Assembly (NCBI GenBank): GCA_963754385.1
Contig: CAVWGE010000001.1
Location: forward strand, 328,575 to 392,574
Direction: 5' to 3'
DNA from: an uncultured Chloroflexia bacterium
Lineage (GTDB): Bacteria; Chloroflexota; Dehalococcoidia; GIF9; UBA5629
DNA length: 64,000 bases
Positions within the stretch are counted from its first letter, which is position 1; each line of letters begins with the position of its first letter. The position numbers and the translations under genes were made by a program. Positions 8,188-58,912 of the stretch are shown here, one piece after another. Below the pieces are notes generated by a model, which was given only the letters and a program-made list of their open reading frames with translations, had not been told where the DNA came from and searched no databases.

Positions 8188-8202
8188 TTCATTCTCCTTC
8201 TT

Positions 8203-16454: not shown

Positions 16455-16477
16455 GGTTCCTCCTATCGGAATTTAAT

Positions 16478-21315: not shown

Positions 21316-22611
21316 TCAACATTTGATTGCCGAGATTCCCAGGTATTTCTCTACCAGTGCCATGGCACAAAATTTGCCGCACATACTACAAGTTTGCCCG
21401 GTAGTGGTATATTTATTGTGAACTAGCCGGACCTTTTCGGGGTCTAAAGACAACTCAGCCTGTGATTCCCAATCAAGGTTCTTTCTAGCAATAGACATTT
21501 TCCTGTCCCAGTCGCTTGCTCTTTTCGTGCCTCTAACAATGTCAGCAGCATGGGCGGCAATACGCGAAGCTATAACACCTATTTTTACATCTTCAATGTC
21601 TGGTAGCGAAAGATGTTCTGAAGGTGTAACATAACATAGAAAGTCAGCCCCTGAGGCGGCAGCAATAGCGCCGCCGATAGCGGCGGTGATATGGTCATAT
21701 CCGGCGGCAATGTCAGTTACCAGAGGGCCAAGGACATAAAATGGAGCTCCGTGGCAGAGGTTTTTTTCTAATTGAACGTTGGTAGCAATTTGATCCAGCG
21801 GTAGATGCCCTGGTCCCTCTACCATTGTTTGTACGCCAGCTTCTCTAGCTCGTTCCACCAGTTCACCGAGGGTAATCAGTTCCTCAACTTGAGCTCGGTC
21901 AGTTGCATCAGCTATGCTGCCTGGGCGCATGCCGTCTCCCAGGCTTAAAGTTACGTCAAATTTACGGGCTATATCTAATAAGCGGTCAAAGTATTCGTAC
22001 AGCGGGTTTTCACGGTCGTTGTGTAACATCCAACCGATAAGAAATGCGCCTCCTCGGGAAACGACATCGGTCAGTCTACGCTGGTGTTTTAGCCGTGCGA
22101 TAGCTGCTTGAGTAACGCCGCAATGAACAGTCATAAAATCTACGCCATCTTTAGCTTGCTGCTCAATAACAGCGAAGAGTTCATCCGTAGGCATGTTTAC
22201 TATTGCACCATGCCGTTCAATAGCTTCAATTCCTGCCTGATATATAGGCACAGTACCTATAGGTAAATTGCTAGCAGCGATGATAGCTTGACGGATGGCT
22301 GGGATGTCACCACCGGTACTCAAGTCCATAACCGTATCAGTGCCAAATTGGGCAGCAATTCGCAATTTCTCCAATTCACCGTTGAGATTGCCGTAATCTG
22401 ATGAAGTGCCGATATTAGCGTTGACTTTGACAGTGAGTCCCTTGCCAATGCCGCAGGGAACCAGATTGGTGTGATTCACATTGGACGGAATTACGATTTT
22501 GCCTTCAGTTGTATATTGCTGTACGACATCTTGGCTCACGTATTCCTGTTGAGCTACTTGCTTTATTTGGGGTGATATTACACCCTGTTTTGCTAATTCT
22601 AGCTGGGTCAT
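21316..22611 (-). CDS. thiC: Phosphomethylpyrimidine synthase ThiC
   Basis: A 431-aa protein with the C-terminal Fe-S motif CSMCGKFCA and typical ThiC core blocks. Confidence 0.95.
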
Positions 22612-22623: not shown

Positions 22624-22668
22624 AGAAAAAAACCAAGAGCTTTAGTAACCACTACTAAACCCTTGGTC
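22624..22668 (-). terminator. Intrinsic terminator serving as the expression platform of the thiC TPP riboswitch
   Basis: On the minus strand an imperfect long hairpin (ACCAAGGGTTTAGTAGTGGTTACTAAAGCTCTTGGT) is followed by a TTTTTTT run. The RBS AGGAGA and the ATG follow the U-tract. Confidence 0.65.
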
Positions 22669-22675
22669 AAATTTA

Positions 22676-22773
22676 CCGCTTCCCTACGCTTGCATTACCA
22701 AGGTCAGGTTCTGACGGTTCTCCGCGATAGCAGAGTCTCAGCCTGGATTGTTTCCTCCGGGCACCCCCAGCGG
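22676..22773 (-). ncRNA. TPP (THI-box) riboswitch aptamer upstream of thiC
   Basis: Minus-strand sequence is CCGCUGGGGGUGCCCGGAGG...GCUGAGA...GAACCUGACC...GGUAAUGCAAGCGUAGGGAAGCGG. It contains the conserved GGGGUGCC, CUGAGA and ACCUGA blocks plus a closing P1 (CCGCU/AGCGG). Confidence 0.85.
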
Positions 22774-22849
22774 TTAACTAAAACCTCTATTCAATATAAC
22801 ATATAATAACACCAAGAAACAAGCAAGGCTTAATTGAATCTGTTACTTA

Positions 22850-24472
22850 TTATCTTATTGTCTTGTGCTTTCGCCAGGCTAGCATTCCTGCTGCCAATAT
22901 TGCGGCAATGACAAGTATCGGAATAGTTATTGACAGAATGAGGGCTTGATTCGACATAAGAATTAAGTCAAATTTCCGAACATCCGACCATTGACTTTCA
23001 TTGCCGATGTCATCCACAGCTTTCACTCTCCAGCTGTATAGGCCCTTGGTCGAGATGTCATTTTGGGACAAGGTATATTCTGAGTCTAGTAAATTTTCCT
23101 TCAGTAAAACCTGTGATGAAAAGTCGTCACCGCGGGCAATCTGTAAGGTATAGCTTACTTTGCCTTCGGCATTAGCATCTGACCAGTCAAAAGTGGCTAT
23201 AGGTGAGCCAAAACCCTGTTGTCTATAATCTTTGAACGTAATAATTCCGATCAGGCTTTTAGCGGGTACGAGAAATACATCCCCAACTGAGTTAAAGACT
23301 TCCAGCTTAGCTCCTTGCTGGGGAGATAATAGTGTTGGTGTGAGGGGTGCGATTTTCTCTGTAATAAACATAGCCTCAGCCGAATTACCAGCGCTTCCCA
23401 TAGCTTGCACTCTGTTGTTTTTTACTGTGCCTTGAGGAACCTCAAAGGCAGCACTAAAACTACCCGCATTGTCGGCAATGGCTTTTACATTGAGAGACTT
23501 ATCCTCAAAGTTTAAGGTAATTGCCTCATCACTAGCGAAGCCAGCCCCATTAACCGTTACCTTGGTTCCCTTGTTACCTGAAGTCGGCTGCAGCCCAATG
23601 TGTGGAACTACGTTGAAGTCGGTATCAGGAACAATTCCCTTCGGTGTAAAACTACTGCCGTAGACACCTATTGTGTGATAGCCTTTAGTGCAAGGCGGGA
23701 TATTTAATGTAGTATTCCAGCTACCATCCGTCCCCCCTACTAAATTGCACAGGATTATTTCACCATCCCAAGTTATGGTGATACCGTCTTCACCACTCCG
23801 AAAGCCAAATCCATCGATTGTAATTTCTGTGCCCACTGGCCCTGAGGTTGGTTCTACCTTTGCAAACGGAGCCACGATAAATCTGTGCTCACCAATTTCT
23901 GACGAATCAGTCGAATTGCTGAAAGCGCCGATAGAATATTCGCCCTTTTTCGTCTCCGGGACATCAAAATTGATGCTCCATGTACCGAGATTATTGGCAG
24001 TGGCAGAAGCGGGTAAGACAGTGCCGTCCCAGGTTATTCTAATGTCATTTTCGGAGGCAGCGAAGCCGTTCCCGATGACCGTAACTCTCGTATACGTTCG
24101 ACCAATGCGTGGGGAGGTTGTTATCCCTGGCAACACGGTAAATGTAGCCGATGCTGTGCTGGCAGTCCAATTGCTATCATCTGTAATTTTAATGATATGG
24201 TCGCCCCTGCAGGCAGGCGGGACTTTCAAATCGCACGTTAGCTCGCCTGTTTCAGATATAGGTATCTTGCTAAGCGCAATTTGGTCATCCCAGTGAATGG
24301 TAGCTAGGCGGCCAGAGAAGCCATTCCCATTTATCTGTATAGATGTGCCAACTGTACCGGAAGCAGGAACTACACTTATGTTGACAGCATAAACGGGAGC
24401 AGGAGACACTAGAAGTATCAGTGGAAGGGTGACAGCTAAAGCTAGTAATACAGATAGAACTTTGGAATGCAT
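22850..24472 (-). CDS. Secreted IPT/TIG-repeat cell-surface protein with a C-terminal TM anchor, paralog of 4234..5982
   Basis: Start at the ATG giving MHSKVLSVLLALAVTLPLILLVSPAPVYA (signal peptide). The ORF track extends to 24511. Tandem Ig-like repeats (G.G.VTVNGAGF...). The C-terminus YTLQIARGDDF..YSWRVKAVDDIGNESQWS is followed by a TM helix. Confidence 0.75.
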   Translation of the reverse strand: MHSKVLSVLLALAVTLPLILLVSPAPVYAVNISVVPASGTVGTSIQINGNGFSGRLATIHWDDQIALSKIPISETGELTCDLKVPPACRGDHIIKITDDSNWTASTASATFTVLPGITTSPRIGRTYTRVTVIGNGFAASENDIRITWDGTVLPASATANNLGTWSINFDVPETKKGEYSIGAFSNSTDSSEIGEHRFIVAPFAKVEPTSGPVGTEITIDGFGFRSGEDGITITWDGEIILCNLVGGTDGSWNTTLNIPPCTKGYHTIGVYGSSFTPKGIVPDTDFNVVPHIGLQPTSGNKGTKVTVNGAGFASDEAITLNFEDKSLNVKAIADNAGSFSAAFEVPQGTVKNNRVQAMGSAGNSAEAMFITEKIAPLTPTLLSPQQGAKLEVFNSVGDVFLVPAKSLIGIITFKDYRQQGFGSPIATFDWSDANAEGKVSYTLQIARGDDFSSQVLLKENLLDSEYTLSQNDISTKGLYSWRVKAVDDIGNESQWSDVRKFDLILMSNQALILSITIPILVIAAILAAGMLAWRKHKTIR

Positions 24473-24600
24473 TAATTCTGCCTTTTCTGAAGATTTTATC
24501 GCTGGAAGCATAGTTTATATTGCCCTGGAGAAAAAATCAAATCTAGCCTTGAAAGGTGGCATCTAATTGTTGGCTTGTCCAAATATGCGAAGTAACTGGC

Positions 24601-24673: not shown

Positions 24674-24750
24674 GGCCCCGTGGTGTAGCGGACTAACATG
24701 CCACCCTGTCACGGTGGAGATCGTGGGTTCGAATCCCATCGGGGTCGCCA
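24674..24750 (+). tRNA. tRNA-Asp (anticodon GTC), CCA encoded
   Basis: Manual cloverleaf: acceptor GGCCCCG/CGGGGTC, D-arm GTGT/ACAT, anticodon stem CCACC/GGTGG with loop CTGTCAC, T-arm GTGGG-TTCGAAT-CCCAT, discriminator G, then CCA. Confidence 0.88.
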
Positions 24751-24883: not shown

Positions 24884-26482
24884 TTAACCCAGATTTCGCA
24901 ATTCTGCTCTTAGCACCTTGCCCAAAAGGTTTTTGGGCAATGACTCCATAAATAGCACTTTTTTCGGTACCTTAAAGGTGGGCAGGTGTTTCTTACAAAA
25001 GGCGATTATTTCTTCCTCGCTGGCTTGTTCTCTTGGTTCAAGAACCACGAAAGCCTTTATCTCTTCTCCGTAAACCTTATCAGGTATGCCGATTATCCCT
25101 GCTTCGACAATCTTGGGATGTTGGCAAAGAATCTCCTCCACTTCTCTTGGTGATACGTTTTCTCCTCCCCTGATGATTAAATCTTTCTTGCGGTCGGTGA
25201 TGTAAACGTAGCCCTCTTCATCTATATAGCCTATATCGCCTGTGTAAAGCCAGCCGTCCTTCATGGTTTGGGCCGTATCCTCGGGCAGCTTCCAATAACC
25301 CTTCATTGCTGTAGGGCCTTTGACTACGATTTCGCCTTGCTGTCCTGGCGGAAGCTCGCGACTGTCATTGTCGAAGACTTTAATGGTATTGCATTTTAAT
25401 AAACACTTGCCTACAGAACCGTACTTAGGCGGGAGGTCAGCTGGCTGTCCTGTGGTAATAGCTCCTGACTCGGTTAGACCCCAGCCTTCCCTTATGTCGA
25501 CACCTGTCTTTTGTTTCCACCTCAGTGCTACCTCCACGGGAAGTGCCGCTCCCCCAGAATTGCAGTCTTCGAGTGAACTCAAATCGTACTCATCAAGGTC
25601 GGGGTAGTCCAGCATCTGGATATACATGGTGGGCACTGCTGCCATGTGAGTAACCCGGAATGCCTGGATGCTCTTCAGTGCTTCCTCAACATTCCACCAC
25701 TTGAGCACAATTGCCCTTCCACCTACAAAATAGCCTGTATTGCTGAACGCAATGCCATACGAGTGAGACAGGGGCAGCACTCCCATGCTAACCATAGTCC
25801 GGTTAACACCGGTAACGCATTGAGTTGCCTCGATTGGTTTAAGTGTTTTGGGGTCTATGGACTGGCTTGTTTGGCGTAGGGTCATTGGGCGGTGGATAAG
25901 GATATATTCATAGAATGACAAGGCATTGATGTAGAGGGAATAGTGGGTGTGCATTACCCCCTTAGGTTTTCCTGTGGTACCTGCGGTATATAATAGAGCG
26001 GCAACGTCGTCATTGTCTGTCTCTTCTATTACAAGGTCATCTGAGCTAGCTGACATAAGCTCACGATATGGGATGGTGCCAGGAGCGTCGTCTCGGTCGG
26101 TTAATAGGATGTGTTTTAAAGTTGGGACCTGGCTTTGTGCATCCTTAATCCAGTCCAGATAATCAGAACTGGTCAGGATAGCTTTTGCTCCACAGTCATG
26201 GTATATGTAGGAGGCTTGGTCAGGCCTCAGCAATGGGTTCAATGGCACGACTATACCACCTATCTTATATATGGCGGGGAAAGCCGAGAATACCGGTGGG
26301 CTATTGGGCATCTGTACTACTACTCGATCCCCTCTGCCGATGCCGAGTGCCTTGAGTGCATTGCCCAATCGATTAGCGTTGCGATTTGCCTCGGTATTGG
26401 TATACCATTTCCCCTCGAAGTGGACACTTTCGTATTCGCCGAACCTCTTGATGTTATCTTCGATGAGACTGCCGATGTTCAT
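24884..26482 (-). CDS. AMP-dependent synthetase/ligase (acyl-CoA synthetase family)
   Basis: A 532-aa protein with the AMP-binding motif YTAGTTGKPKGV and the C-terminal linker motif GEIVVKG. Confidence 0.9.
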   Translation of the reverse strand: MNIGSLIEDNIKRFGEYESVHFEGKWYTNTEANRNANRLGNALKALGIGRGDRVVVQMPNSPPVFSAFPAIYKIGGIVVPLNPLLRPDQASYIYHDCGAKAILTSSDYLDWIKDAQSQVPTLKHILLTDRDDAPGTIPYRELMSASSDDLVIEETDNDDVAALLYTAGTTGKPKGVMHTHYSLYINALSFYEYILIHRPMTLRQTSQSIDPKTLKPIEATQCVTGVNRTMVSMGVLPLSHSYGIAFSNTGYFVGGRAIVLKWWNVEEALKSIQAFRVTHMAAVPTMYIQMLDYPDLDEYDLSSLEDCNSGGAALPVEVALRWKQKTGVDIREGWGLTESGAITTGQPADLPPKYGSVGKCLLKCNTIKVFDNDSRELPPGQQGEIVVKGPTAMKGYWKLPEDTAQTMKDGWLYTGDIGYIDEEGYVYITDRKKDLIIRGGENVSPREVEEILCQHPKIVEAGIIGIPDKVYGEEIKAFVVLEPREQASEEEIIAFCKKHLPTFKVPKKVLFMESLPKNLLGKVLRAELRNLG

Positions 26483-26644: not shown

Positions 26645-26673
26645 TTGACAGGATACGGGGCCTGTGGTAGATT
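26645..26673 (+). promoter_or_regulatory. Candidate sigma70 promoter (TTGACA-N17-TAGATT) for the HMGCS-like/thiolase/SDR module
   Basis: Reads agagtTTGACAggatacggggcctgtggTAGATTgcc, about 40 nt upstream of the ATG at 26715. Confidence 0.45.
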
Positions 26674-26714: not shown

Positions 26715-28157
26715 ATGGTAGGTATCAAATCATACGGAGCTTATATCCCGCGATATCGAATGAACCACAATACTATCTTCTTGGCTGTTGGATTTTTGGG
26801 TACATTTCCTGCACCTGGGGAGAATGCAATTGCAAACTATGATGAAGATACGCTTAGTATGGCAGTAGCTGCTGGTATTGACTGCTTGAGTGGTATGAAA
26901 CGGGAAAAGGTGGACGGCTTATATCTTGCAACTACCAGTCAGCCTTACATGCTGCGACAAAATTCTGCCATTGTAGCTACGGCTCTCGACCTACAGCCTG
27001 GCATAAGAACAGCTGACTTTACTGGCTCTGCAAAAGCGGGGACTAGTGCTTTACTCTCTGCTTTTGATGCCGTAAAGGGTGAAACATCCAGCAGTGTCCT
27101 GGTCTGTACTTCCGACTGCCGGTTAAGCAAGCCAGGTAGTTCTCAGGAACCTTTGTATGGTGATGGTGCAGCAGCTCTCCTTGTAGGAAGTGATGATGTG
27201 ATTGCTACCTTTGAAGGTTCTTATTCTGTGTCATATGATTTTCCCGACCGCTGGAGAGCAGCAGGAGAGAAATTTGAGCGTGCCTGGGAGGACAGGTTCA
27301 TTCGTGATGAGGGCTATGCAAGAGTAATTCCTGAGATAATCTCAGGGCTGTTGAAGAAATATAATCTGAACATCAATGACTTTGCTAAAATAGCGTACCC
27401 AGGCCTTTATGCCAGGGAACATGGTGCGATAGCAAAGCGTCTGGGTGTCGAGCCAAGTCGGATTCAAGATACCTTGCTTGATAAAATAGGTGATACCGGT
27501 TCGGCTTCGCCTTTAATGATGCTGGCAGCAGCGCTTGAAGATGCTAAGCCAGGAGACAAGATTCTGGTTGCCAGCTTCGGGAATGGCGGCGATGCTCTGT
27601 TTTTTCAAGTGACTGAGAAGATAAAGGGGTTGGCAGATAGGCGAGGAGTCAAGAAAAATCTAGCGTCGAAGAAGGAACTTTCTAGCTATGAGAAATATCT
27701 TGCTTTCCGAAATCTAGCACCAATGGACTTAGGTATGCGTGGCGAGGAAAGCGTTCGTACTCCGATGTCCACTCTGTTCAGGGAACGCAAGTCGATTTTA
27801 TCGCTTTGCGGTTCGAAATGTAAACGCTGTGGCACTCCTCAGTACCCTGCTCAGAGAGTATGTGTGAACCCGGATTGTGGAGCTGTTGATGAGATGGAAA
27901 GTTATCGCTTCTCAGACAAGAATGGTGTTCTATTCACCTATACTGGTGATAACCTTGCCGCTAGTATCGACCCGCCGGCAATCTATGGCATTATAGATTT
28001 TGAAGGTGGCGGTAGATTTTGGTTTGACCTCACTGATTGTGACCTTGACTCGGTTAAGGTGGGCATGCCGGTGCAGATGACATTCCGTAGGAGATATGTT
28101 GATGAGGCCAGTGGAGTTTATGGTTACTCTTGGAAGGCAACACCGATACGTGCCTGA
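26715..28157 (+). CDS. Fusion protein with an N-terminal HMG-CoA synthase-like (thiolase-superfamily) domain and a C-terminal DUF35 Zn-ribbon/OB-fold domain. The HMGCS-like domain appears non-catalytic.
   Basis: The N-terminus MVGIKSYGAYIPRYR is the archaeal-HMGCS hallmark. The C-terminal ~130 aa carry CGSKCKRCG...CVNPDCG (a rubredoxin-like zinc ribbon) plus the DUF35 OB-fold. Aligned from memory to S. aureus MvaS, Glu79 is Thr (ATTS versus ATES) and Cys111 is Ala (GSAKAGT versus EACYAAT). Confidence 0.8.
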   Translation: MVGIKSYGAYIPRYRMNHNTIFLAVGFLGTFPAPGENAIANYDEDTLSMAVAAGIDCLSGMKREKVDGLYLATTSQPYMLRQNSAIVATALDLQPGIRTADFTGSAKAGTSALLSAFDAVKGETSSSVLVCTSDCRLSKPGSSQEPLYGDGAAALLVGSDDVIATFEGSYSVSYDFPDRWRAAGEKFERAWEDRFIRDEGYARVIPEIISGLLKKYNLNINDFAKIAYPGLYAREHGAIAKRLGVEPSRIQDTLLDKIGDTGSASPLMMLAAALEDAKPGDKILVASFGNGGDALFFQVTEKIKGLADRRGVKKNLASKKELSSYEKYLAFRNLAPMDLGMRGEESVRTPMSTLFRERKSILSLCGSKCKRCGTPQYPAQRVCVNPDCGAVDEMESYRFSDKNGVLFTYTGDNLAASIDPPAIYGIIDFEGGGRFWFDLTDCDLDSVKVGMPVQMTFRRRYVDEASGVYGYSWKATPIRA

Positions 28158-28187
28158 AGCAAACGAATAAATACGGAAGAGATAGAA

Positions 28188-29390
28188 ATGGCAGAAGGTA
28201 TAAAAGACAAGGTGGCTATCATAGGCATGGGCTGCACGAAGTTTGGCGAGTTGTGGGATAAGGGTGCTGAGGACCTGATGGTCGATGCATTCAAAGAATG
28301 CATCGAGGATGCCGGCGTAGAAAAGAAGGATATTCAGGCTGCCTGGTTTGGTATACATTTTGAAGAGCAGAGTGTAGGAAAGGGAGCTACACCTTTGGCA
28401 TTGACGCTGAAGTTGCCTTTTATCCCGGTAACTAGGGTAGAAAACTTTTGTGCTACCGGTACAGAAGCCTTGAGAGGAGCTTGTTATGCTGTGGCTTCTG
28501 GGGCCTATAATATTGCTTTGGCTTTAGGCGTGGAAAAGCTTAAGGATACCGGGTATGGTGGTCTTCCTGGGTTTCGTAATCTGATGGGAGCCAAAAATGC
28601 GCTAATCATGCCCAAGTTGACTGCCCCGGGCTGTTTTGCCATGATGGCTACCAGATATTTTGCTGTCTATGGTTTGAGCCCGGATGAGGGCAAGAGGATG
28701 CTGGCCAAGGTATCAGTTAAAAGTCATCATAATGGTTCTTTGAATCCGAAGGCACACCTGCGCCGCGAGGTCACCGAAGAGCAAGTAATGAATGCCCCCA
28801 TCATTGCTTGGCCGCTTGGGCTTTTTGACTGCTGTGGGGTTAGTGATGGTTCTGCGGCAGCCATTGTTACCAGAGCTGACATGGCTAAAAATTTTAGACC
28901 TGACCCAGTTTACATCAAATCTTTACAGGTTGCTCTAAGTTCGGGCGAGGAGTTGATGTACACGAATTGGGATGGTGCCCATGTTGAAACTGGGTATCGT
29001 GCTGGGGTCCTAGCTTATAATGAGGCAGGAATAAAGAACCCACGTAAAGAGGTAAGCATGGCTGAAATACACGATTGTTTCTCTATTACTGAAGCGGTAA
29101 CTATGGAGGATTTGCAGTTTAGCCCCAGAGGACGGGTTAAGGATGATATCGAGGCTGGTCGTTTTAACCTGGATGGTGAACAGCCTATTCAGCCAGATGG
29201 CGGATTGAAGTGTTTCGGGCATCCTATCGGTGCCTCTGGCCTGAGGATGATGTATGAGATGTATAAACAGCTGCAAGGTAAAGCTCAACAGCCGGAGCGA
29301 CAGTTGAAGAATCCTAAGATTGGGTTAACGCATAACATGGGTGGCTTCCCAGCCATGAACGTTGTTAGTGTTGCCATCGTAGGCCTGTGA
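28188..29390 (+). CDS. Thiolase, SCP-x/archaeal acetoacetyl-CoA thiolase-like
   Basis: A 400-aa protein starting VAIIGMGCTKFGE. The nucleophile Cys sits in ENFCATGTEAL and the C-terminal motif is GHPIGASGLRM. Confidence 0.9.
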   Translation: MAEGIKDKVAIIGMGCTKFGELWDKGAEDLMVDAFKECIEDAGVEKKDIQAAWFGIHFEEQSVGKGATPLALTLKLPFIPVTRVENFCATGTEALRGACYAVASGAYNIALALGVEKLKDTGYGGLPGFRNLMGAKNALIMPKLTAPGCFAMMATRYFAVYGLSPDEGKRMLAKVSVKSHHNGSLNPKAHLRREVTEEQVMNAPIIAWPLGLFDCCGVSDGSAAAIVTRADMAKNFRPDPVYIKSLQVALSSGEELMYTNWDGAHVETGYRAGVLAYNEAGIKNPRKEVSMAEIHDCFSITEAVTMEDLQFSPRGRVKDDIEAGRFNLDGEQPIQPDGGLKCFGHPIGASGLRMMYEMYKQLQGKAQQPERQLKNPKIGLTHNMGGFPAMNVVSVAIVGL

Positions 29391-29447
29391 TACAAATTTA
29401 ACGAAATGTTAATATGTAAATTAAGATAAAAAAGGAGAAGTCAAAAG

Positions 29448-30356
29448 ATGGGTGATAGGTTAAAGGACAGAGTAGCTATAGTTACTGGCTCGGGTCAAGG
29501 AATTGGAAGAGCCATAGCAGTAGCCTTGGCTGAAGAAGGTGCCAAGGTAGTGACTAACAACCGTCGGCCAGATACTCCAGGTGGAGATGCTGGAACTACA
29601 GCTAAGCAGATTACAGATATGGGTGGTCAGGCTATGCCTTTCTTCGGTAGCGTCTCTGATTTTGAGCTGGCTGGCAAACTGATACAGGCGACAGTGGACA
29701 AATTTGGCAGGCTGGACATATTGGTGAACAATGCCGGTGCTGACCGACCCCACATGGTCTGGAATATGACGGAAGAGGAATGGGATACGTGCGTGGACTC
29801 CTTTCTTAAAGGCACCTTTAACTGTACTAGATTTGCCTGTGGCGTAATGAGAGAACAAAAGTGGGGGCGGATAATAAATACCACTTCTACTGCCTGGCTA
29901 GGTGCCGTAGGACACTGCAATTATTGCGCCGCTAAGGCTGGTATCGTAGGCCTAACCAGAGGTGTAGCCAGGGAGATGGGCAGATATGGAGTGACCTGCA
30001 ATGCCTATGCTCCAACCGCGGCAACACGGTTTACACTTAGTGAGGACGTAGTGGCTGGTTTCAAAAAAAGGTTAGAAACAGGGCTTATAACCAAGGAGAG
30101 ATACGAAGAGCTGACCAACCCACCCAGCCCGGAAACAGTAACTCCTTTCATACTTTATCTCTGCGCTGAAGAGGCGGCTGACATAAACGGGCAGATGTTT
30201 GATGTCACCGGCGGTAATATCGCCATTTACTCAGAGCCGGTAAAGAAGAAGACCATCACTAAAAAAGAGGGCTTGTGGACGATAGAAGAGTTGGTAGAAC
30301 TGGTGCCAAAGGTATTACTGGAAGGATATAGTAATCCTTCACCGCCTCAGCAGTAA
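29448..30356 (+). CDS. Short-chain dehydrogenase/reductase (SDR) family oxidoreductase
   Basis: Carries TGSGQGIGRAIA (the Rossmann TGxxxGIG motif), NNAG and YCAAKAG (YxxxK). Confidence 0.9.
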   Translation: MGDRLKDRVAIVTGSGQGIGRAIAVALAEEGAKVVTNNRRPDTPGGDAGTTAKQITDMGGQAMPFFGSVSDFELAGKLIQATVDKFGRLDILVNNAGADRPHMVWNMTEEEWDTCVDSFLKGTFNCTRFACGVMREQKWGRIINTTSTAWLGAVGHCNYCAAKAGIVGLTRGVAREMGRYGVTCNAYAPTAATRFTLSEDVVAGFKKRLETGLITKERYEELTNPPSPETVTPFILYLCAEEAADINGQMFDVTGGNIAIYSEPVKKKTITKKEGLWTIEELVELVPKVLLEGYSNPSPPQQ

Positions 30357-30572: not shown

Positions 30573-32417
30573 ATGGCTGAAGTGAAAAAATTTTTATTTT
30601 TGTTTTTTACCTGTCTTTTGTTGGTGGCATTTGTGCTTCCTGCCTGTGCTGCGCCTGCTGCGGAAAACGTCATAAAAGTCGGTATTATTGGGCCAATGAC
30701 ATTCCCGGAAGGTGAGCATCAGTGGATGGGAGCCCAGCTGGGAGCCAAGAAGGTCAATGATGGCGGTGGCATAAAAATAGGCGACAAAACGTATACCATC
30801 CAATTGATCAAGGCGGACGACAACGAAGTGCTAAGCACTACGGACGCGGCTGCAGCCATGGAAAAACTGATAACTGTGGACAAGGCGGACTTTATATATG
30901 GTGGCTTCAGGACAGAAGCTGTATACCCCATGCAAGACGTAGCTATGAACTACAAGAAGATATTCTTCGATTATGGGGCTGCTACAGCGGCGCTCTGTGG
31001 TAAGGTAAGTGAGGATTACGACCACTACAAGTACTTCTTCAAAGGGACTCCATTCAACGAGTACTATCTGGTCAATAATATTTTCATGGTTACGGCTATG
31101 GTTAATGACCAACTCAAAAAGGAGCTGAATATAGACCATGTTAAGGTCGCTATAATAGCCGAGAAACTAGAGTGGGCCGAAGCGATGGTAGCTATTGCCG
31201 AGGCACAGCTGCCGGAAATGGGAATGGAGGTAGTCGGCACGTGGAGACCGTCAGATACAGCCACAGATGTCAGTGCTGAGCTGACAGCCATCGCAGCTAA
31301 AGAGCCGCAGATGATTTTCTGCATATTCTCCGGTCCGGTAGGCATCACTTTTGCAAAGCAGCAAGTGGAGTTAGATGTACCCGCCTGTTCCCTAGGTATT
31401 TTCGTCGAAGCACAGAAAAGCGCCTTCATGGAGGCAACAGGTGGCAAGGGTCTATATTTTACTACGTTGAATACCTACACAAGGGAAGTTGCATATAATG
31501 ACCTGACCCAACCCTTCGTCACTGAATTCGTGAATACATATAACCAAGTCCCGCTATATACTGCTGCTACCTATGATGGTATGTTGCTTCTAAAGACTGC
31601 CCTGGAAAAGGCGCAAAGCTTGGATGCCGATACTTTAGTCCCGGTTATTGAAGAGACATCGTCGCCGATTACAGCTGGTAAGGCAGCCTACTATAAGCTG
31701 GGCGATGATTGTCCCCCAAACTGTGCACATGACCTGGTGTACGGCCCCGGTTATGTGACCGGCGTCTGCACTCAATGGCAGAGTACTGACCCAATCATGG
31801 GGTCGAAGGCTATCTGGCCGCAGTCTTATACAGGTGTGCCTGATGAGTGGAAAGATTTAAAGTATGGGGGGACATATCCATACGTGATACCGCCTAACGT
31901 AATCGCGAAGTTCAAGCAAGAAGGGGCACCAGCCCCACCACCAGCACCGCCGGCTCCACCACCGGCACCACCGGCGGGCGGGCTATCGTTTGAGGCTGCT
32001 GAATATACCAATGCTGAGCTTGGTTTCTCCGTCAAGTACCCTAAGGATTGGGCACAGCAGCCATCGGAGGACGTATTGTTCTACGCTGCAGCTCCGAAAA
32101 AAGTTCCACTTTTATTCGTTGATGCTAAGGAAGGTGCTACCTTTACTGAAGCGCTCACAAAATCACTGGAGGCAGTTGGTGGCAAAAACGTTAAAATGAA
32201 GCCTGAGAGTGAGATAACTCTGGCAGATGGTACTAAAGCCATCCAGGCTATAGGCAAGTTCAGTCATCCGGCCGCTCCAGTGGCAATGGACATCTTGTCT
32301 GTAGGAGCGATGAAGGACAATAAGTGGGTTATCGTTACGGTGGCTACTGTAGGGATGCTGGCAAAGTTCGATGAAGCCAAGTTTTCGGAAATAGCCCGTA
32401 CATTGCAATTCAAGTAG
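30573..32417 (+). CDS. Substrate-binding lipoprotein of a Liv-type ABC transporter (periplasmic binding protein type I), carrying a Pro/Ala-rich linker and an extra C-terminal domain of about 150 aa
   Basis: ATG follows TAAAGGAGGT. The signal peptide has a lipobox (LPAC). A LivK-like body runs to about aa 450, then APAPPPAPPAPPPAPPAGG, then a C-terminal domain (FSVKYPKDWAQQ...). Confidence 0.85.
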   Translation: MAEVKKFLFLFFTCLLLVAFVLPACAAPAAENVIKVGIIGPMTFPEGEHQWMGAQLGAKKVNDGGGIKIGDKTYTIQLIKADDNEVLSTTDAAAAMEKLITVDKADFIYGGFRTEAVYPMQDVAMNYKKIFFDYGAATAALCGKVSEDYDHYKYFFKGTPFNEYYLVNNIFMVTAMVNDQLKKELNIDHVKVAIIAEKLEWAEAMVAIAEAQLPEMGMEVVGTWRPSDTATDVSAELTAIAAKEPQMIFCIFSGPVGITFAKQQVELDVPACSLGIFVEAQKSAFMEATGGKGLYFTTLNTYTREVAYNDLTQPFVTEFVNTYNQVPLYTAATYDGMLLLKTALEKAQSLDADTLVPVIEETSSPITAGKAAYYKLGDDCPPNCAHDLVYGPGYVTGVCTQWQSTDPIMGSKAIWPQSYTGVPDEWKDLKYGGTYPYVIPPNVIAKFKQEGAPAPPPAPPAPPPAPPAGGLSFEAAEYTNAELGFSVKYPKDWAQQPSEDVLFYAAAPKKVPLLFVDAKEGATFTEALTKSLEAVGGKNVKMKPESEITLADGTKAIQAIGKFSHPAAPVAMDILSVGAMKDNKWVIVTVATVGMLAKFDEAKFSEIARTLQFK

Positions 32418-32438
32418 TAAGTGATTTAGCGTTTGAGT

Positions 32439-32478
32439 GAGTACCCCCGGGTTGCTTGAAATAGCCCCGGGGGTACTC
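32439..32478 (+). other. Stable intercistronic stem-loop (13-bp perfect GC-rich stem) between the binding-protein and permease genes
   Basis: GAGTACCCCCGGG (32439-32451) pairs with CCCGGGGGTACTC (32466-32478). There is no U-tract. This is typical of a differential mRNA-stability element or partial terminator in an ABC operon. Confidence 0.55.
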
Positions 32479-32525
32479 AAAAGTGCGTAAAGAAATTTGT
32501 TAAGCAATACAAATTGGTATAAACC

Positions 32526-33398
32526 ATGATTCAGGCATTTGTAATTCAGATGCTGGTAACAGGTGGGATATATGCCATGCTGGCTGTTGGCTTCGCACTT
32601 ATCTTTGGTGTAGCCCGAATGATAAACCTGGCACATACCTCGTTCCTGATGCTGGCAGCCTACGGTATGTTTTACTCCACTTATAGACTTGGTTTAGACA
32701 TTATCCCAGCGATAGCCATATCACTTGTCGGTACCACATTCATAGGTGTAGCGAGTTACAAGTTATTCATTGACCGGATACGCGAGCATCAGGTAACCGT
32801 GATGCTGGTAACCATTGCTCTTGCTATAGTTTTCCAGGAATGCATGCTTTTAGCCTTTGCTGCTCACTTTCGTGAGGCCCCGCTTCTTATCAAGGGGTTC
32901 GTGGAGATAGCGGGTGTGAGGATTACCAACGAACAATTACTGACGCTGGCTGTGGTCCTGGTTGTATTGATTGGCATATGGGCGCTTTTGTCAAAGACAA
33001 AATTGGGAATTGCTATTCGAGCCACCGCTCAGGATACTGAAATCGCTAATCTTATGGGGATAAGCGTTTCTAGGATACTCTTGATAACTATGGGCATGGC
33101 TACGGCATTGGCGGCAGTTGCTGGCATTGTGGTGGCTCCGCTATGGGTTGTTTTCCCCTATATGTGGCTAAATCCATTGGTAACAGTTATGGCGATCGTT
33201 GTCTTAGGTGGCTTGGGGAGTGTTAAGGGTAGTCTCATCGGCGCCTTTATCATATCGTTCGTTCAAACAGCGGTTGTATTCTTCCTCCCTGGAGGCGCCT
33301 TCCTGAATACGGCTTTTGCCTTGCTGGTTATGGTAATAATACTTGTAGTCAGACCTGAAGGTCTGTTCGGCGTGGTTTTTGAAGAGGAGAGATTATAA
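32526..33398 (+). CDS. livH: Branched-chain amino acid-type ABC transporter permease (LivH family)
   Basis: A 290-aa polytopic protein with typical LivH topology and N-terminus (MIQAFVIQMLVTGGIYAMLAVGFALIFGV). Confidence 0.88.
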   Translation: MIQAFVIQMLVTGGIYAMLAVGFALIFGVARMINLAHTSFLMLAAYGMFYSTYRLGLDIIPAIAISLVGTTFIGVASYKLFIDRIREHQVTVMLVTIALAIVFQECMLLAFAAHFREAPLLIKGFVEIAGVRITNEQLLTLAVVLVVLIGIWALLSKTKLGIAIRATAQDTEIANLMGISVSRILLITMGMATALAAVAGIVVAPLWVVFPYMWLNPLVTVMAIVVLGGLGSVKGSLIGAFIISFVQTAVVFFLPGGAFLNTAFALLVMVIILVVRPEGLFGVVFEEERL

Positions 33399-34436
33399 TT
33401 GTTAAGGCGGCTGTTTAAGGATTTCCAGGGTGACGTGCTGGCTATTCCAGGCAGGCTTATCGCCCTTATTTTCTTTTTACTTTTGTTTCTTTTACCTCTG
33501 ATAACACAAGAACCTTACACCCTTCGCATTCTGATTCTTGCCAATGTTTTCGTTATTTTCGCTGTTAGCTGGGACTTTATATCCGGCTATACGGGACAGA
33601 TAAACTTCGGTCATGCCCTGTTCTTTGGTGCTGCGGCCTACAGTACAGCTTTGCTAGGTAAATACCTTGGTTTACAGCCCTGGCTGACTATACCGATTGG
33701 GGCTATTGTTGCCGTAGGAGCTGGGATGCTTATGTGTCTGCCGGCATTAAGGCTGAGAGGCCCTTATTTGTCGCTGGTGACTTTAGCTTTTCCCCTCATT
33801 TTGCTTGGTGTCATCAAGGCTTTTCCTGATGTTACTGGCGGTGAACATGGTATTTCTGGTCTACCCGCACTTTCTGATTCTCGAGTAGTTGAATACTACA
33901 TAGCTCTGCCTATCATGATTGTTTCCGTGCTCATAATGTGGAAGCTTACCGATGCCAAAAGTGCTCTTGTCAGGACAGGCATCATTCTTCATGCCATCCG
34001 TGAAGATGAGATTGCGGCTCGTGCCAGTGGAATCAACACCATAAGATATAAGATGTTCGCTTTCGCCGTAGGTGGTTTCTTTGCCGGGGTTGCCGGCGGT
34101 TTATACGCTCACTTTTTGAGAATCGCTGGTCCATCAAGTCTCGACATGATGCTGTCATTCCAGGCAATAATATGGACGGTTTTTGGCGGCATTGTCAGCA
34201 TTTATGGCGCAGTGGTTGGGGTTTACATTCTGTATCCTCTGATGGAATTCTTGCGGGTTATCCCTGAGTTAAGGATTCTGATTTTTGCAGCTATAGTAAT
34301 AGTTATTCTTCTCTTTATGCCCGAGGGGATTGCGGTTTGGATAAGAGACAAAATTGAGCGCGAGTGCCCTCGTTGCAAGTTAACTAATGTGGCTTGGCGT
34401 CGTACCTGTAGAGCCTGTGGCGCTTCTCTGTACTGA
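33399..34436 (+). CDS. livM: Branched-chain amino acid-type ABC transporter permease (LivM family) with a C-terminal CxxC...CxxC zinc-ribbon tail
   Basis: TTG start abuts the livH stop. A LivM-like TM core is followed by a cytoplasmic tail ECPRCKLTNVAWRRTCRACGASLY. Confidence 0.85.
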   Translation: MLRRLFKDFQGDVLAIPGRLIALIFFLLLFLLPLITQEPYTLRILILANVFVIFAVSWDFISGYTGQINFGHALFFGAAAYSTALLGKYLGLQPWLTIPIGAIVAVGAGMLMCLPALRLRGPYLSLVTLAFPLILLGVIKAFPDVTGGEHGISGLPALSDSRVVEYYIALPIMIVSVLIMWKLTDAKSALVRTGIILHAIREDEIAARASGINTIRYKMFAFAVGGFFAGVAGGLYAHFLRIAGPSSLDMMLSFQAIIWTVFGGIVSIYGAVVGVYILYPLMEFLRVIPELRILIFAAIVIVILLFMPEGIAVWIRDKIERECPRCKLTNVAWRRTCRACGASLY

Positions 34437-34449: not shown

Positions 34450-35199
34450 CTAAAGACCTAGATATGTCTTTCTGATAGTCTCGTCTTTTAGTAATTCTTT
34501 AGCTGTTCCCTGGGCGATTATGTGTCCCCGGGACATAACGTAGCTTCTTCTTGACAGGTCGAAAGCGAAGCTGATGTCTTGCTCGGCCAGTAGTATGGTA
34601 ACACCCAGCTCGTGATAAATTTCCTCTATGCGCTTAAACAGGTCTTCTTTGAGCCTTGGTGCCAGTCCACTTGAAGGCTCATCAACTAACATGAACTTGG
34701 GCTTACGCATTAGTGCCCTACCTATAGCCAGCATTTGGCGTTCCCCCCCAGATAACGTCCCCGATACTTGGTTTTGTCTGTCCTTCAGCGTTGGAAACAA
34801 TTCGTAGACCTTGTTGAGACTATCGTTGACTACCTTCTTATCCTTAACCAGATAAGCGCCGGCTAGCAAGTTATCCTTGACCGTCATTTCAACAAACGGT
34901 CTGCCTCTCTCGGGGCAAAGGAGCAAGCCTCTCTTGGCTATTTCAGAGGCGGAGAGTTTTTCAATTCTCTCGCCTTCGAACTCTATACTGCCTTTAAAGG
35001 TTATGTCTGCCTGCCTTGTCCCCTTTGATACCTCCTTCTCCCAGTTTATCAATCCTGCTATAGCTCGTAGCAGTGTCGTTTTTCCGGCGCCGTTGGGACC
35101 GACGAGCCCGACTAATTCGCCTTTTTCAACCATAAGGCTGGCGTCATCTAATACCATAGCTGTGTCATAAGAGACGGTCACATCTTTTATTTCAAGCAA
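34450..35199 (-). CDS. livF: ABC transporter ATP-binding protein (LivF family)
   Basis: Walker A GPNGAGKTTL, signature LSGGERQ. I chose TTG at 35199 (protein MLEIKDVTVSYD...), preceded by AAGGAGGTG. The ORF-track start at 35229 is also TTG and lacks an RBS. Confidence 0.8.
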   Translation of the reverse strand: MLEIKDVTVSYDTAMVLDDASLMVEKGELVGLVGPNGAGKTTLLRAIAGLINWEKEVSKGTRQADITFKGSIEFEGERIEKLSASEIAKRGLLLCPERGRPFVEMTVKDNLLAGAYLVKDKKVVNDSLNKVYELFPTLKDRQNQVSGTLSGGERQMLAIGRALMRKPKFMLVDEPSSGLAPRLKEDLFKRIEEIYHELGVTILLAEQDISFAFDLSRRSYVMSRGHIIAQGTAKELLKDETIRKTYLGL

Positions 35200-37679: not shown

Positions 37680-37886
37680 TGTGTCACCTCCTGCTTTGCT
37701 GGAAGCAAAGCATACCACATTATCTGTATTCTGGCAATGTAGGAATGTGTGCGGTTGTGCTATTTGATTAATTGAGAAACCTACCCCTAATTGATTTTCC
37801 GCCCTTCACAGAGTTACTCCGACGGTAGCTATGATTGACCTTCTAATTATGAGCCGGCTGGCATATAGAGCCATTAATATATAAAG

Positions 37887-58906: not shown

Positions 58907-58912
58907 AAGAAA

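Follow-up and report, generated by a model that had tools for sequence, protein, structure and literature searches.

An HMG-CoA-synthase-like domain without its catalytic tetrad, fused to DUF35 and encoded with a thiolase and a dehydrogenase in a Dehalococcoidia genome: a probable beta-oxidation module

Introduction

The archaeal thiolase/HMG-CoA synthase (HMGS)/DUF35 complex (PDB 6esq) consists of three separate proteins, contains an active HMGS (catalytic residues E82, C114, H238 and N270) and belongs to the mevalonate pathway. PhlACB, MucABC and CsATase (PDB 5M3K/5MG5, 9VBO/9VBT, 9SKH) have a tripartite make-up of separate polypeptides with an inactive HMGS-like subunit; their thiolase-like subunit lacks the HDxF motif and acylates small-molecule acceptors, and they are encoded in PKS or NRPS-PKS clusters. 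A fused kind was first characterised in P. fluorescens, where a single HMGS-DUF35 polypeptide without the Glu-Cys-His-Asn tetrad neighbours a thiolase (PfACAT/HMGS-DUF35; Liao et al., Nat Commun 2026, PMC12960953). This protein makes no HMG-CoA, and the complex forms no acetoacetyl-CoA but thiolyses acetoacetyl-CoA, an activity that is abolished by mutating the His of HDxF. A family member had also surfaced in 2020 as the unexplained “HMG-CoA synthase” EGO55_13555 of the oestrogen-degradation (edc) cluster of N. tardaugens (PMC7793797).

Here we analyse a 64,000-nt stretch of DNA (the window) from an uncultured bacterium of the Dehalococcoidia (Chloroflexota), a different phylum from that of PfACAT/HMGS-DUF35. 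The original prediction for this DNA did not recognise the arrangement as a described system, a view that the fused type of 2026, the inactive subunits of PhlACB and MucABC, and the oestrogen-cluster member of 2020 have made outdated. What comparative context adds is a probable role in beta-oxidation for the fusion family; Liao et al. saw no pathway for their complex (PMC12960953). The complex is probably a 3-ketoacyl-CoA thiolase that closes an (R)-specific, MFE-2-style round of beta-oxidation, with the non-catalytic fusion as its scaffold.

Results

Pfam and NCBIfam domains confirm the predicted architecture, an HMGS-like domain fused to DUF35 and followed by an SCP-x-type thiolase and a short-chain dehydrogenase (SDR), and a check of the open reading frames returned exactly the predicted coordinates (Table 1). 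The gap between the fusion gene and the downstream thiolase gene is 30 nt.

Table 1. Features of the fusion locus and other genes of the window
Feature	Position	Strand	Basis or remark
Promoter-like site, TTGACA-17-TAGATT, with TG	26645..26673	+	~40 nt upstream of fusion gene; consensus scan, matches only
GAGG Shine-Dalgarno-like motif	~8 nt before ATG of fusion gene		Sequence read; consensus match only
Fusion gene, 480 aa	26715-28157	+	ORF check
HMG-CoA-synthase-like (thiolase-superfamily) domain, residues 1-334	26715..27716	+	PRK04262, 6esq_I/PhlA alignments, AF2/Foldseek
Linker from HMGS-like domain to DUF35, residues 335-364	27717..27806	+	Between Pfam/NCBIfam domain boundaries
DUF35 module, Cys4 zinc ribbon and OB fold	27807..28157	+	Pfam zf-ChsH2 and OB_ChsH2_C
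SCP2/SCP-x-type thiolase, 400 aa	28188..29390	+	ORF check; NCBIfam PRK06157, PDB match, motifs
MFE-2-like SDR, 302 aa, C-terminal extension	29448..30356	+	ORF check; Pfam adh_short
AMP-forming acyl-CoA ligase	24884..26482	-	Pfam AMP-binding; divergent from fusion operon
Liv-type ABC importer genes	30573..34436	+	Substrate-binding protein and two permeases
Importer substrate-binding protein	30573-32417	+	Pfam Peripla_BP_6
Importer permeases, two	32526-33398, 33399-34436	+	BPD_transp_2 on syntenic genes of related locus L001
ABC ATPases, two	34450-35229, 35192-35962	-	ABC_tran on syntenic genes
Second AMP-forming acyl-CoA ligase	35964-37718	-	Pfam AMP-binding
Acyl-CoA dehydrogenase (ACAD) gene pair, 394 aa then 377 aa	15321..17662	-	Pfam; candidate distant partner of fusion
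dxr (MEP pathway)	10307-11476
ispG (MEP pathway)	8203-9255

The archaeal HMG-CoA synthase model PRK04262 (NCBIfam) covers residues 1-334 of the fusion at 226.8 bits, under its cut-off of 244, and Pfam places ACP_syn_III_C at residues 214-291. In a HMMER alignment to M. thermolithotrophicus HMGS (6esq_I, E 1.4e-35), the N-terminus MVGIKSYGAYIPRYR is aligned with the archaeal IGIVGYGSYIPKYRI, in agreement with the archaeal hallmark proposed earlier; N-terminal YIPxYR and DED motifs are common to both proteins. The catalytic columns, read from this alignment and rechecked by residue counting, show that E82 is replaced by Thr74 (ATTSQPY), C114 by Ala106 (GSAKAGT), H238 by Pro229 and N270 by Asp260. 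The original prediction had named the Glu and Cys replacements and found the His not clearly conserved; profile alignment upholds all three and adds the Asn. Neither the catalytic Glu nor the catalytic Cys was recovered in any of 151 family sequences, whose Glu column holds Thr in 123 and whose Cys column holds Leu, Gln and other residues. The AF2 model of the fusion protein (pLDDT 94.8, pTM 0.94) predicts an HMGS-like domain whose top Foldseek match is the archaeal HMGS (6esq/6et9; TM 0.90, rmsd 2.4 Å), with PhlA next and then MucA. By sequence, the archaeal HMGS ranks second among PDB matches and is roughly tied with PhlA-type 9skh_A (E 5.4e-36), and 5m3k_A also matches (E 3.4e-34). As judged from these alignments, the domain has an archaeal-type fold, all four tetrad residues are replaced, and it is non-catalytic.

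The DUF35 module comprises zf-ChsH2 (residues 365-390) and OB_ChsH2_C (402-458) and ends in a conserved Y-x-W-K motif before the stop codon. Across 50 diverse homologues, each of the zinc-ribbon cysteines C369, C372, C383 and C388 shows 90% conservation or more, and the module finds its top PDB match in the archaeal DUF35 subunit (6esq_E, E 1.4e-16). The block of lowest pLDDT in the AF2 model (80; residues 341-350) falls within the linker. The original prediction had raised the possibility that the fusion is a frameshift artefact. However, the protein is exactly 480 aa long in 102 of the 120 closest cluster representatives, the full fusion recurs in 134 of the 150 best representatives (33-52% identity), and tblastn gave one match spanning residues 1-~479 per locus at nearly all of 80 genome loci. 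These counts rule out a frameshift artefact, and the 480-aa reading frame is one real HMGS-DUF35 protein.

The thiolase scores 624.6 bits against NCBIfam PRK06157 (cut-off 403), and its top PDB match is the thiolase of the archaeal complex (6esq_A, E 3.5e-58). Since the archaeal complex gives the closest match to the HMGS-like domain by structure and to DUF35 and the thiolase by sequence, all three parts derive from a complex of that type. The nucleophile predicted in NFCATGT is kept (Cys88), and His295 and Cys297 (HDCF) and His345 (GHP) are also intact; by published description, PfACAT likewise has the catalytic Cys, HDxF and GHx, and the latter two motifs occur in the archaeal thiolase. All four residues are invariant in 69/69 aligned thiolases, namely that of the window and 68 encoded at related loci. 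The thiolase is predicted to be the sole catalytic centre of the complex.

The thiolase motifs bear on the possibility that the complex is a Friedel-Crafts C-acyltransferase, CoA-independent or acetyl-CoA-dependent, like PhlACB, MucABC and CsATase. PhlA-type proteins rank high among the matches of the fusion in both sequence and structure, and the change of N270 to Asp (GDTGSAS) is common to this group (GDTGAAS in PhlA). This reading is nevertheless highly improbable: HDxF is lost in PhlC and MucB (PMC12960953) but HDCF is kept in the window thiolase and in 68/68 thiolases of related loci, and the thiolase matches PhlC weakly, at 74.6 bits versus 201 bits for the archaeal thiolase. Moreover, the window contains no PKS or NRPS genes, as is also the case around PfACAT/HMGS-DUF35, and the subunits that are separate in PhlACB, MucABC and CsATase are fused here.

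The intact Cys88, HDCF and GHP also argue against a retro-aldolase of the Ltp2/Sal type, because the canonical thiolase nucleophile is described as missing from those enzymes. In steroid side-chain degradation, DUF35 proteins are known to partner thiolase-like aldolases, and public annotations label relatives of the fusion “hydroxymethylglutaryl-CoA synthase”, which would instead suit a genuine mevalonate enzyme. With four catalytic residues gone, HMGS models under their cut-offs and dxr and ispG in the window, on which the original prediction had already judged a mevalonate role unlikely, we give very little credence to either a genuine HMG-CoA synthase or an aldolase.

The fusion module is real and very widespread in bacteria. 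Representatives of 50%-identity clusters number 3,529 at E<=1e-3 and 673 at E<=1e-30, and more than 120 clusters within the lineage are at least 77% identical to the fusion. In genomes from many phyla, 58 of 67 evaluable loci have a thiolase gene directly downstream on the same strand. Within four genes of the fusion, an SDR is found at 49% of loci, a MaoC/MFE-2 hydratase at 43% and an ACAD at 40%, approximate figures that come from a crude in-house ORF caller; ETF, CoA-transferases, CoA ligases and TetR regulators also recur. At 22 of 72 loci, proteins of ~910 aa join pseudo-HMGS and DUF35 to an MFE-2-type SDR and SCP2. With its MFE-2-type dehydrogenases, MaoC hydratases and ACADs, the family context looks like an (R)-specific beta-oxidation module.

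This context is difficult to reconcile with an evolutionary relic, an intermediate no longer able to make HMG-CoA and serving no physiological pathway of its own. Liao et al. interpret PfACAT/HMGS-DUF35 in this way, and secondary-metabolism neighbours were absent at 1,001 of the 1,030 bacterial loci that they surveyed (PMC12960953). We consider a relic quite unlikely, given a family size unexpected for a functionless protein, tight conservation and conserved synteny within the lineage, and recurrence in beta-oxidation clusters with fusion to SDR and SCP2 domains.

The oestrogen cluster of Novosphingobium sp. ES2-1 provides a catabolic setting. IM701_RS20355, the counterpart of N. tardaugens EGO55_13555, is a full-length fusion in which Thr occupies the Glu site and Leu the Cys site; residues 3-477 align at 32% identity. 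On either side of it lie an SDR (33% identity, C-terminal extension included) and a thiolase (41%) homologous to those of the window, so the same three-gene module is found in a catabolic operon. The ES2-1 cluster differs in its gene order (SDR-fusion-thiolase), its aerobic alphaproteobacterial host and its neighbours (ACAD, ECH, Ltp/DUF35, CYP450 and meta-cleavage genes), and steroid ring fragments are known to be its class of substrate.

Discussion

By homology with the archaeal complex, PhlACB, MucABC and PfACAT/HMGS-DUF35, the fusion would assemble with the thiolase encoded downstream, providing a scaffold and forming part of the CoA-binding chamber, and all chemistry would take place at the thiolase (Cys88 as nucleophile, HDCF and GHP). 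The adjacent SDR, predicted from sequence to interconvert (3R)-hydroxyacyl-CoA and 3-ketoacyl-CoA, would deliver the 3-ketoacyl-CoA that the thiolase complex then cleaves. The top PDB matches of the SDR are (3R)-hydroxyacyl-CoA dehydrogenases of MFE-2 (2et6, 1zbq, 1gz6 and 3oml). The earlier proposal of a pseudo-HMGS scaffold adapted to thiolysis agrees with the P. fluorescens biochemistry (PMC12960953) and with the beta-oxidation context, and for this organism it remains a likely reading.

The SDR also lends support to the reverse direction, in which the thiolase would condense acyl-CoA with acetyl-CoA and the SDR would reduce the 3-ketoacyl-CoA to (R)-3-hydroxyacyl-CoA. In its cofactor motif VVTNNRRPD, Asn38-Arg39-Arg40 take the place of the Asp-Leu-Gly seen in NAD-dependent MFE-2 enzymes and the other partner SDRs; the motif looks NADP(H)-like and would suit reduction better. 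An NADPH-dependent reduction could replace the HMGS reaction as thermodynamic pull, the archaeal parent complex itself serving to drive an unfavourable condensation, and the system would then be akin to PhaA/PhaB or to the ACP-independent archaeal fatty-acid synthase (ketothiolase/DUF35 with an (R)-specific SDR). That archaeal pathway of KT/DUF35, SDR, MaoC and MDR is a precedent (bioRxiv 10.1101/2024.07.05.601840), and the absence of a hydratase or ACAD from the operon is in keeping with biosynthesis. However, the SDRs that adjoin or are fused to the fusion elsewhere have the NAD-type Asp, including the one in the same slot of an equally syntenic sister lineage (L002), and family neighbours are ACADs and ETF, CoA ligases and transferases, TetR regulators and importers rather than enoyl reductases. 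Members also occur in oestrogen catabolic clusters, and the P. fluorescens complex gave no acetoacetyl-CoA from acetyl-CoA (PMC12960953). Biosynthesis is therefore unlikely, and thiolysis is preferred.

The module has partial parallels. The peroxisomal MFE-2 (HSD17B4)/SCPx thiolase system and the archaeal KT/DUF35 synthase are functional analogies only. Both unite an (R)-specific hydroxyacyl-CoA dehydrogenase or reductase of MFE-2/SDR type with a MaoC-type hydratase, an SCP2 domain and a thiolase of SCP2 type, and each of these four domain types is met repeatedly as a neighbour of the fusion family or joined to it. HMGS-like and DUF35 subunits are missing from the eukaryotic system, and the archaeal one, which uses an MDR enoyl reductase, operates in synthesis and contains no pseudo-HMGS. 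BbsAB (benzoylsuccinyl-CoA thiolase) and the steroid aldolases Ltp2-ChsH2 and Sal-Shy share a thiolase-fold enzyme of SCP2 type that depends on a DUF35 zinc-ribbon/OB-fold partner in beta-oxidation-like catabolism. They differ in having no HMGS-like subunit, and DUF35 stands alone in BbsA and is fused to a MaoC hydratase in ChsH2 and Shy; Ltp2 and Sal act as aldolases rather than thiolases. The comparison with BbsAB-type pairs drawn originally holds as a loose likeness, but the NCBIfam models score far under their cut-offs (BbsA, 18.5 versus 250; BbsB, 132.5 versus 750).

In the window, unlike at PfACAT/HMGS-DUF35, an MFE-2-like SDR gene follows the pair, and CoA ligase and ABC importer genes flank the module, a setting that points to import of an organic acid followed by its activation with CoA and its shortening. 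The module most likely acts in the breakdown of organic acids. The divergent ligase scores 461.7 bits against NCBIfam PRK06187 (cut-off 476) and keeps its synteny in related loci L001 and L002; the second ligase is under the cut-off of all NCBIfam long-chain-fatty-acid-CoA ligase models. The 64-kb window holds no gene for a MaoC or crotonase hydratase, and the closest ACADs are 9 kb from the operon, so a full round of beta-oxidation is not encoded locally. These ACADs are possibly linked to the fusion operon, as they are 36-45% identical, in a BLAST comparison, to ACAD pairs directly adjoining fusion-thiolase genes in other Chloroflexota and Desulfosarcina. The pair also gives weak PimC/PimD-like matches.

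An HMG-CoA synthase-like domain without the catalytic tetrad

The original prediction described an HMG-CoA synthase (HMGS)-like domain fused to DUF35, followed by a thiolase and an SDR, and three closely spaced ORFs were found on the forward strand exactly at the predicted coordinates. The HMGS-like domain and DUF35 lie in a single ORF, for which Pfam reported ACP_syn_III_C (the C-terminal domain of the thiolase superfamily), a ChsH2-type zinc ribbon and a ChsH2-type OB fold (formerly DUF35). HMGS family models all scored below their cut-offs: the archaeal HMGS model PRK04262 (NCBIfam NF003274) gave 226.8 bits over residues 1-334 against a cut-off of 244, TIGR00748 gave 150.7 against 353, and TIGR01835 gave 64.5 against 360.

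Catalytic positions were read from a HMMER alignment to the HMGS of Methanothermococcus thermolithotrophicus (6esq_I; E = 1.4e-35), combined with residue counting; the alignment is unambiguous around every one of them. Relative to 6esq_I, E82 is replaced by Thr74, C114 by Ala106, H238 by Pro229 and N270 by Asp260. The same four residues form the E-C-H-N tetrad of HMGS mutated in the "mut4" control of Liao et al. (Nat Commun 2026, PMC12960953). The losses of Glu, Cys and His suspected from a hand alignment were confirmed in this way, and the loss is more complete than had been claimed, with the Asn gone too. A genuine HMGS was rejected, given the replacement of all four catalytic residues and the sub-threshold family scores. 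Both dxr and ispG are present within the window, and no mevalonate-pathway gene was found among its Pfam-scanned ORFs (those of at least 150 aa, all but 52795-55995 and 63336-63959).

Features of the window discussed in the text
Feature	Position	Strand	Description
IPT/TIG protein, first paralogue	4234-5982	+	~550-580 aa; repeated IPT/TIG and Ig-like domains, C-terminal membrane anchor
ACAD pair	15321-17662	-	394 + 377 aa; adjacent genes; weakly PimC/PimD-like (large/small subunits)
GreA/GreB-family protein	17865-18698	-	277 aa
TPP riboswitch	22664-22778	-	upstream of thiC (21316-22611); above Rfam gathering threshold
IPT/TIG protein, second paralogue	22850-24511	-	~550-580 aa; domains as in first paralogue
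tRNA-Asp(GTC)	24674-24750	+	one border of 13-kb block
Promoter-like site	26645-26673		upstream of fusion ORF; GAGG motif also precedes ORF
HMGS-like-DUF35 fusion	26715-28157	+	480 aa
Thiolase	28188-29390	+	400 aa; 30 nt downstream of fusion
SDR	29448-30356	+	302 aa; 57 nt beyond thiolase; Pfam adh_short
Liv-type substrate-binding protein	30573-32417		614 aa
tRNA-Pro(GGG)	38557-38630	-	other border of 13-kb block
PyrR binding site	58906-59034	-	upstream of PRTase/pyrB/pyrC-like genes (56015-58906); above Rfam gathering threshold

An intact thiolase

The adjacent thiolase has both Pfam thiolase domains (N and C) and scored 624.6 against the SCP2/SCP-x-type NCBIfam model PRK06157 ("acetyl-CoA acetyltransferase"), well above the cut-off of 403; its PDB matches include the SCP2-thiolases 6hsj and 3zbg. 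The nucleophile is kept, as had been predicted, as Cys88 in NFCATGT, and the other thiolase motifs are also intact: His295-Asp-Cys297-Phe (HDCF) and Gly-His345-Pro. An alignment with 68 thiolases from related loci showed Cys88, His295, Cys297 and His345 in all 69 sequences, and the complete HDCF motif is likewise shared by the window thiolase and 68/68 of the others.

Conservation of the dead site across the fused family

Among 5.8 billion proteins searched, more than 120 clusters (at 90% identity) had at least 77% identity to the fusion, and 102 of these are exactly 480 aa long. They carry the source names of Dehalococcoidia or Chloroflexi MAGs, and synteny with the window is complete across ~21 kb in two close-relative contigs. 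When 1.84 billion cluster representatives were searched exhaustively with HMMER, 3,529 relatives emerged, 673 of them at E ≤ 1e-30; the complete HMGS-like plus DUF35 architecture is present in 134 of the 150 best, at 33-52% identity. The fusion, which is thus found in close and distant homologues alike, is not a frameshift artefact, a concern raised with the original prediction, and the family is extremely common in metagenomes.

Among 151 aligned sequences, the Glu column holds Thr in 123 and never Glu, and the Cys column holds Leu (84 sequences), Gln, Thr, Met, Pro, Arg or Ala, never Cys. The zinc-ribbon cysteines C369, C372, C383 and C388 are each at least 90% conserved across 50 diverse homologues. 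With no catalytic Glu or Cys in these columns and the zinc cysteines kept, the whole fused family therefore consists of pseudo-HMGSs with an intact DUF35. This family-wide absence of catalytic residues corrects "HMG-CoA synthase" annotations in anaerobes that use the MEP pathway. The public label "hydroxymethylglutaryl-CoA synthase" can wrongly imply a mevalonate pathway, and the taxa at risk of such a misreading include Dehalococcoidia, sulfate reducers, syntrophs and other uncultured anaerobes.

Some family members are attributed to archaeal MAGs, one to Hadesarchaea (locus L039) and one, 80% identical, to a source labelled Methanomethyliaceae archaeon (protein P0086). The Hadesarchaea context is beta-oxidation-like, with ETF, CoA-transferase, acyl-CoA dehydrogenase (ACAD) and thiolase genes. 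Horizontal transfer or mis-binning may account for these archaeal members.

Structural similarity and descent

An AlphaFold2 model of the fusion, built from a 50-sequence alignment, had a pLDDT of 94.8 and a pTM of 0.94, values which indicate that the two domains are held in a fixed arrangement. When this fusion was compared with the PDB using Foldseek, the archaeal HMGS of 6esq/6et9 ranked first (TM 0.90 on target, rmsd 2.3-2.5 Å), followed by PhlA (5mg5, 5m3k, 9skh) and MucA (9vbo, 9vbt) of the Friedel-Crafts C-acyltransferases PhlACB and MucABC. Each of these top matches is a component of a thiolase/HMGS-like/DUF35 complex; lower ranks went to free-standing bacterial HMGS and FabH. By sequence, the DUF35 part is nearest to 6esq_E, the DUF35 subunit of the archaeal complex, with the C-terminal motif included (E = 1.4e-16), and the thiolase is nearest to 6esq_A, the thiolase of that complex (E = 3.5e-58). 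The HMGS-like, DUF35 and thiolase parts are all nearest to parts of the archaeal complex and thus all descend from an archaeal-type tripartite complex.

Relationship to described systems

Liao et al. reported 1,030 bacterial loci with co-localised genes for HMGS-like, thiolase (ACAT) and DUF35 proteins, of which 1,001 are without secondary-metabolism neighbours (PMC12960953). The complex that they characterised from P. fluorescens has a fused HMGS-DUF35 protein that lacks the E-C-H-N tetrad, and an ACAT that retains Cys, HDxF and GHx (PMC12960953). When supplied with acetyl-CoA, this complex made neither HMG-CoA nor acetoacetyl-CoA; it cleaved acetoacetyl-CoA thiolytically, and mutation of the HDxF His nearly abolished thiolysis (PMC12960953). 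The authors proposed that the complex is an evolutionary intermediate without a defined pathway (PMC12960953).

The window module shares with this type the HMGS-like domain and DUF35 in one polypeptide, the loss of the tetrad, and an adjacent thiolase with Cys, HDxF and GHx; PKS or NRPS neighbours are likewise absent among the Pfam-scanned ORFs of the window. Judged by the published features, it has every sequence-level characteristic of the fused type. The original prediction was therefore largely right in reading a dead HMGS-like fusion beside an intact thiolase, but not in regarding the system as undescribed, since modules of this kind have been published (PMC12960953). Literature searches turned up no account of the module from Dehalococcoidia, nor from anaerobic degradation pathways of Desulfobacterota. 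What is added here is the demonstration of a dead site across the family, the correction of annotation, and evidence that the module functions in beta-oxidation and is not a relic.

Inactive HMGS-like subunits were known earlier from PhlACB and MucABC, where the thiolase-like subunit has also lost HDxF (PMC12960953). An acyltransferase of this type was rejected for the window module: HDCF is kept, the match of PhlC to the window thiolase is weak (74.6 bits), and the scanned window ORFs include no genes of the type III PKS or NRPS-PKS clusters in which such enzymes are located. An orthologue of the benzoylsuccinyl-CoA thiolase BbsAB was also rejected (BbsA scored 18.5 against a cut-off of 250, BbsB 132.5 against 750), as was an Ltp2-like aldolase.

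Gene context across genomes

One genome per GTDB species was scanned with the peptide pattern DED[SAT][LIV]T, which gave at least 525 loci, and the best 80 were examined. The corresponding DEDTLS of the window does not fit the pattern, so its closest relatives are absent from the scan, and the best genome match is 64% identical. The best 80 loci span Dehalococcoidia, other Chloroflexota, many Desulfobacterota (Desulfosarcina alkanivorans, Syntrophaceae, Smithella and Desulfatiglandales), Bacillota (Syntrophomonas and Dethiosulfatibacter), Actinomycetota, Myxococcota and a Hadesarchaea MAG.

Neighbourhoods were delineated with a custom ORF caller, BLAST clustering and Pfam searches of cluster representatives, so that percentages are approximate. 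The thiolase is the next same-strand gene after the fusion in 58 of 67 evaluable loci. An SDR lies within four genes of the fusion in 49% of loci, and the figure is 43% for a MaoC/MFE-2-hydratase-2 protein and 40% for an ACAD; other neighbours are ETF, family-III CoA-transferases, AMP-forming ligases, crotonases, an OYE-type reductase, thioesterases and TetR regulators. In 22/72 loci the fusion is extended to ~910 aa by an MFE-2-type SDR and an SCP2 lipid-binding domain, and this larger protein mostly follows a ~710-aa MaoC-hydratase-SDR-SCP2 protein and precedes the thiolase and an ACAD. The very large size of the family and its recurrence with MFE-2-type dehydrogenases, MaoC hydratases, SCP2 domains and ACADs argue for a working beta-oxidation thiolase module. 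Gene context and domain fusions thus favor a working unit over the "evolutionary intermediate" proposed for the sole characterised member.

Individual loci showed further arrangements. One (L062) encodes tandem giant beta-oxidation proteins, a 715-aa MFE-2 with the hydratase first (hydratase-2/MaoC, SDR and SCP2; 5818-7965) and a 909-aa protein with pseudo-HMGS, DUF35, SDR and SCP2 (8001-10730), preceded by a TetR gene and followed by thiolase and ACAD genes; ~20 Desulfobacterota loci are similar. Three others (L013, L015, L018) have a second thiolase (~388 aa) and a stand-alone 143-aa DUF35 protein directly upstream of the fusion-thiolase pair, with ACAD and ETF beta/alpha genes after, placing the classical pair and the pseudo-HMGS version side by side. 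The chromosome of Desulfosarcina alkanivorans PL12, a cultured alkane-degrading sulfate reducer and possible experimental host, carries at least two paralogous fusion copies (L037 and L055) ~32 kb apart; the order at L037 is ACAD, ligase, ACAD, fusion, thiolase, SDR, MFE-2 hydratase, ACAD, ACAD.

Ibero et al. (2020) assigned no role to the "HMG-CoA synthase" EGO55_13555 in the oestrogen-degradation cluster of Novosphingobium tardaugens, which sits between a thiolase and a 3-hydroxyacyl-CoA dehydrogenase (PMC7793797). The order SDR-MaoC-fusion-thiolase was found in a plasmid record of Sphingomonas paeninsulae, and ACAD-SDR-fusion-thiolase-ECH-ECH-…-Ltp-DUF35-CYP450-TetR-FadD3 in one of Novosphingobium sp. 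ES2-1. The latter agrees with the edc genes listed by Ibero et al. (PMC7793797), and identity to the window proteins is 33% for its SDR, 32% for its fusion and 41% for its thiolase. From these counterparts and the plasmid and genome loci, the three-gene unit of the window is therefore a module conserved across phyla, which offers a possible explanation for the "HMG-CoA synthase" of oestrogen-degradation clusters.

Proposed function and reaction direction

In the best-supported model, the 480-aa fusion would be a pseudo-enzyme scaffold that assembles with the thiolase via its DUF35 module and helps form a CoA-binding chamber, with the chemistry done by the thiolase. The module would supply the dehydrogenase and thiolase steps by which an organic acid, once imported and activated with CoA, is degraded through (R)-specific beta-oxidation. 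The best PDB matches of the SDR are (3R)-hydroxyacyl-CoA dehydrogenase domains of MFE-2 (2et6, 1zbq, 1gz6, 3oml); the resemblance includes the C-terminal extension, and the alignment with the partner SDR of ES2-1 extends to residue 290.

An alternative is that in this Dehalococcoidia lineage the three proteins work in the condensing direction, with an apparently NADP(H)-type reductase functionally replacing the dead HMGS site. The adjacent MFE-2-like reductase would pull an unfavourable Claisen condensation forward, giving an ACP-independent machine for chain elongation or (R)-3-hydroxyacyl-CoA formation. Residues 33-42 of the window SDR read VVTNNRRPD, where MFE-2 enzymes and other partner SDRs of the family have VVVNDLGG or VVVSDLD. 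The Asp that closes strand beta-2 in NAD+-type enzymes (VVVND) is absent, and Asn38-Arg39-Arg40 occupies the place of the Asp-Leu-Gly of NAD-type partners, which looks like an NADP(H) signature. While this substitution and the precedent of the archaeal KT/DUF35 fatty-acid synthase (bioRxiv 10.1101/2024.07.05.601840) are consistent with condensation, a sister lineage with the same synteny (L002) has a different, 259-aa NAD-type SDR in that slot, and the gene neighbours of the family are oxidative (ACAD, ETF). Condensation is an improbable reading; if true, it would make the trio a bacterial counterpart of the archaeal synthase on a pseudo-enzyme scaffold.

That the acyl chains handled by the family are bulky, branched or alicyclic is suggested by its SCP2 fusions, its heteromeric-looking ACAD pairs and its presence in oestrogen clusters. 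These considerations raise the questions of which substrates require such a thiolase and why the thiolase has a dead partner.

Genomic setting in the window

The genes on either side of the fusion operon encode an acyl-CoA ligase, transcribed divergently, as well as a Liv-type ABC importer and another acyl-CoA ligase. Together these genes (ligase, fusion, thiolase, SDR, ABC transporter, ligase) form a 13-kb block bracketed by tRNA genes, which is syntenic in related MAGs and does not differ clearly from its flanks in base composition. No hydratase to complete the beta-oxidation set was found among the Pfam-scanned ORFs of the 64-kb window. A ligase, the SDR and the thiolase would suffice for an imported (R)-3-hydroxy acid; such a substrate is speculative, and is consistent with the local genes. 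The ACAD pair of the window is 36-45% identical to ACAD pairs that adjoin the fusion-thiolase genes in other Chloroflexota and Desulfosarcina (L017, L023, L026, L037), which suggests a heteromeric ACAD that is part of the module but set apart from it here by housekeeping genes.

The Liv-type substrate-binding protein is unusually long: Peripla_BP_6 is followed by a proline-rich linker (APAPPPAPPAPPPAPPAGG) and then by a C-terminal domain of ~150 aa that has weak similarity to PsbP, and no NCBIfam model matched the protein at E ≤ 1e-20. The two IPT/TIG paralogues are probably cell-surface proteins, and one of them directly adjoins the fusion cluster. The GreA/GreB-family protein has its GreA domains at residues 124-273, preceded by a ~120-aa N-terminal extension without a Pfam match, and is of the same length in the two syntenic relatives (L001, L002).
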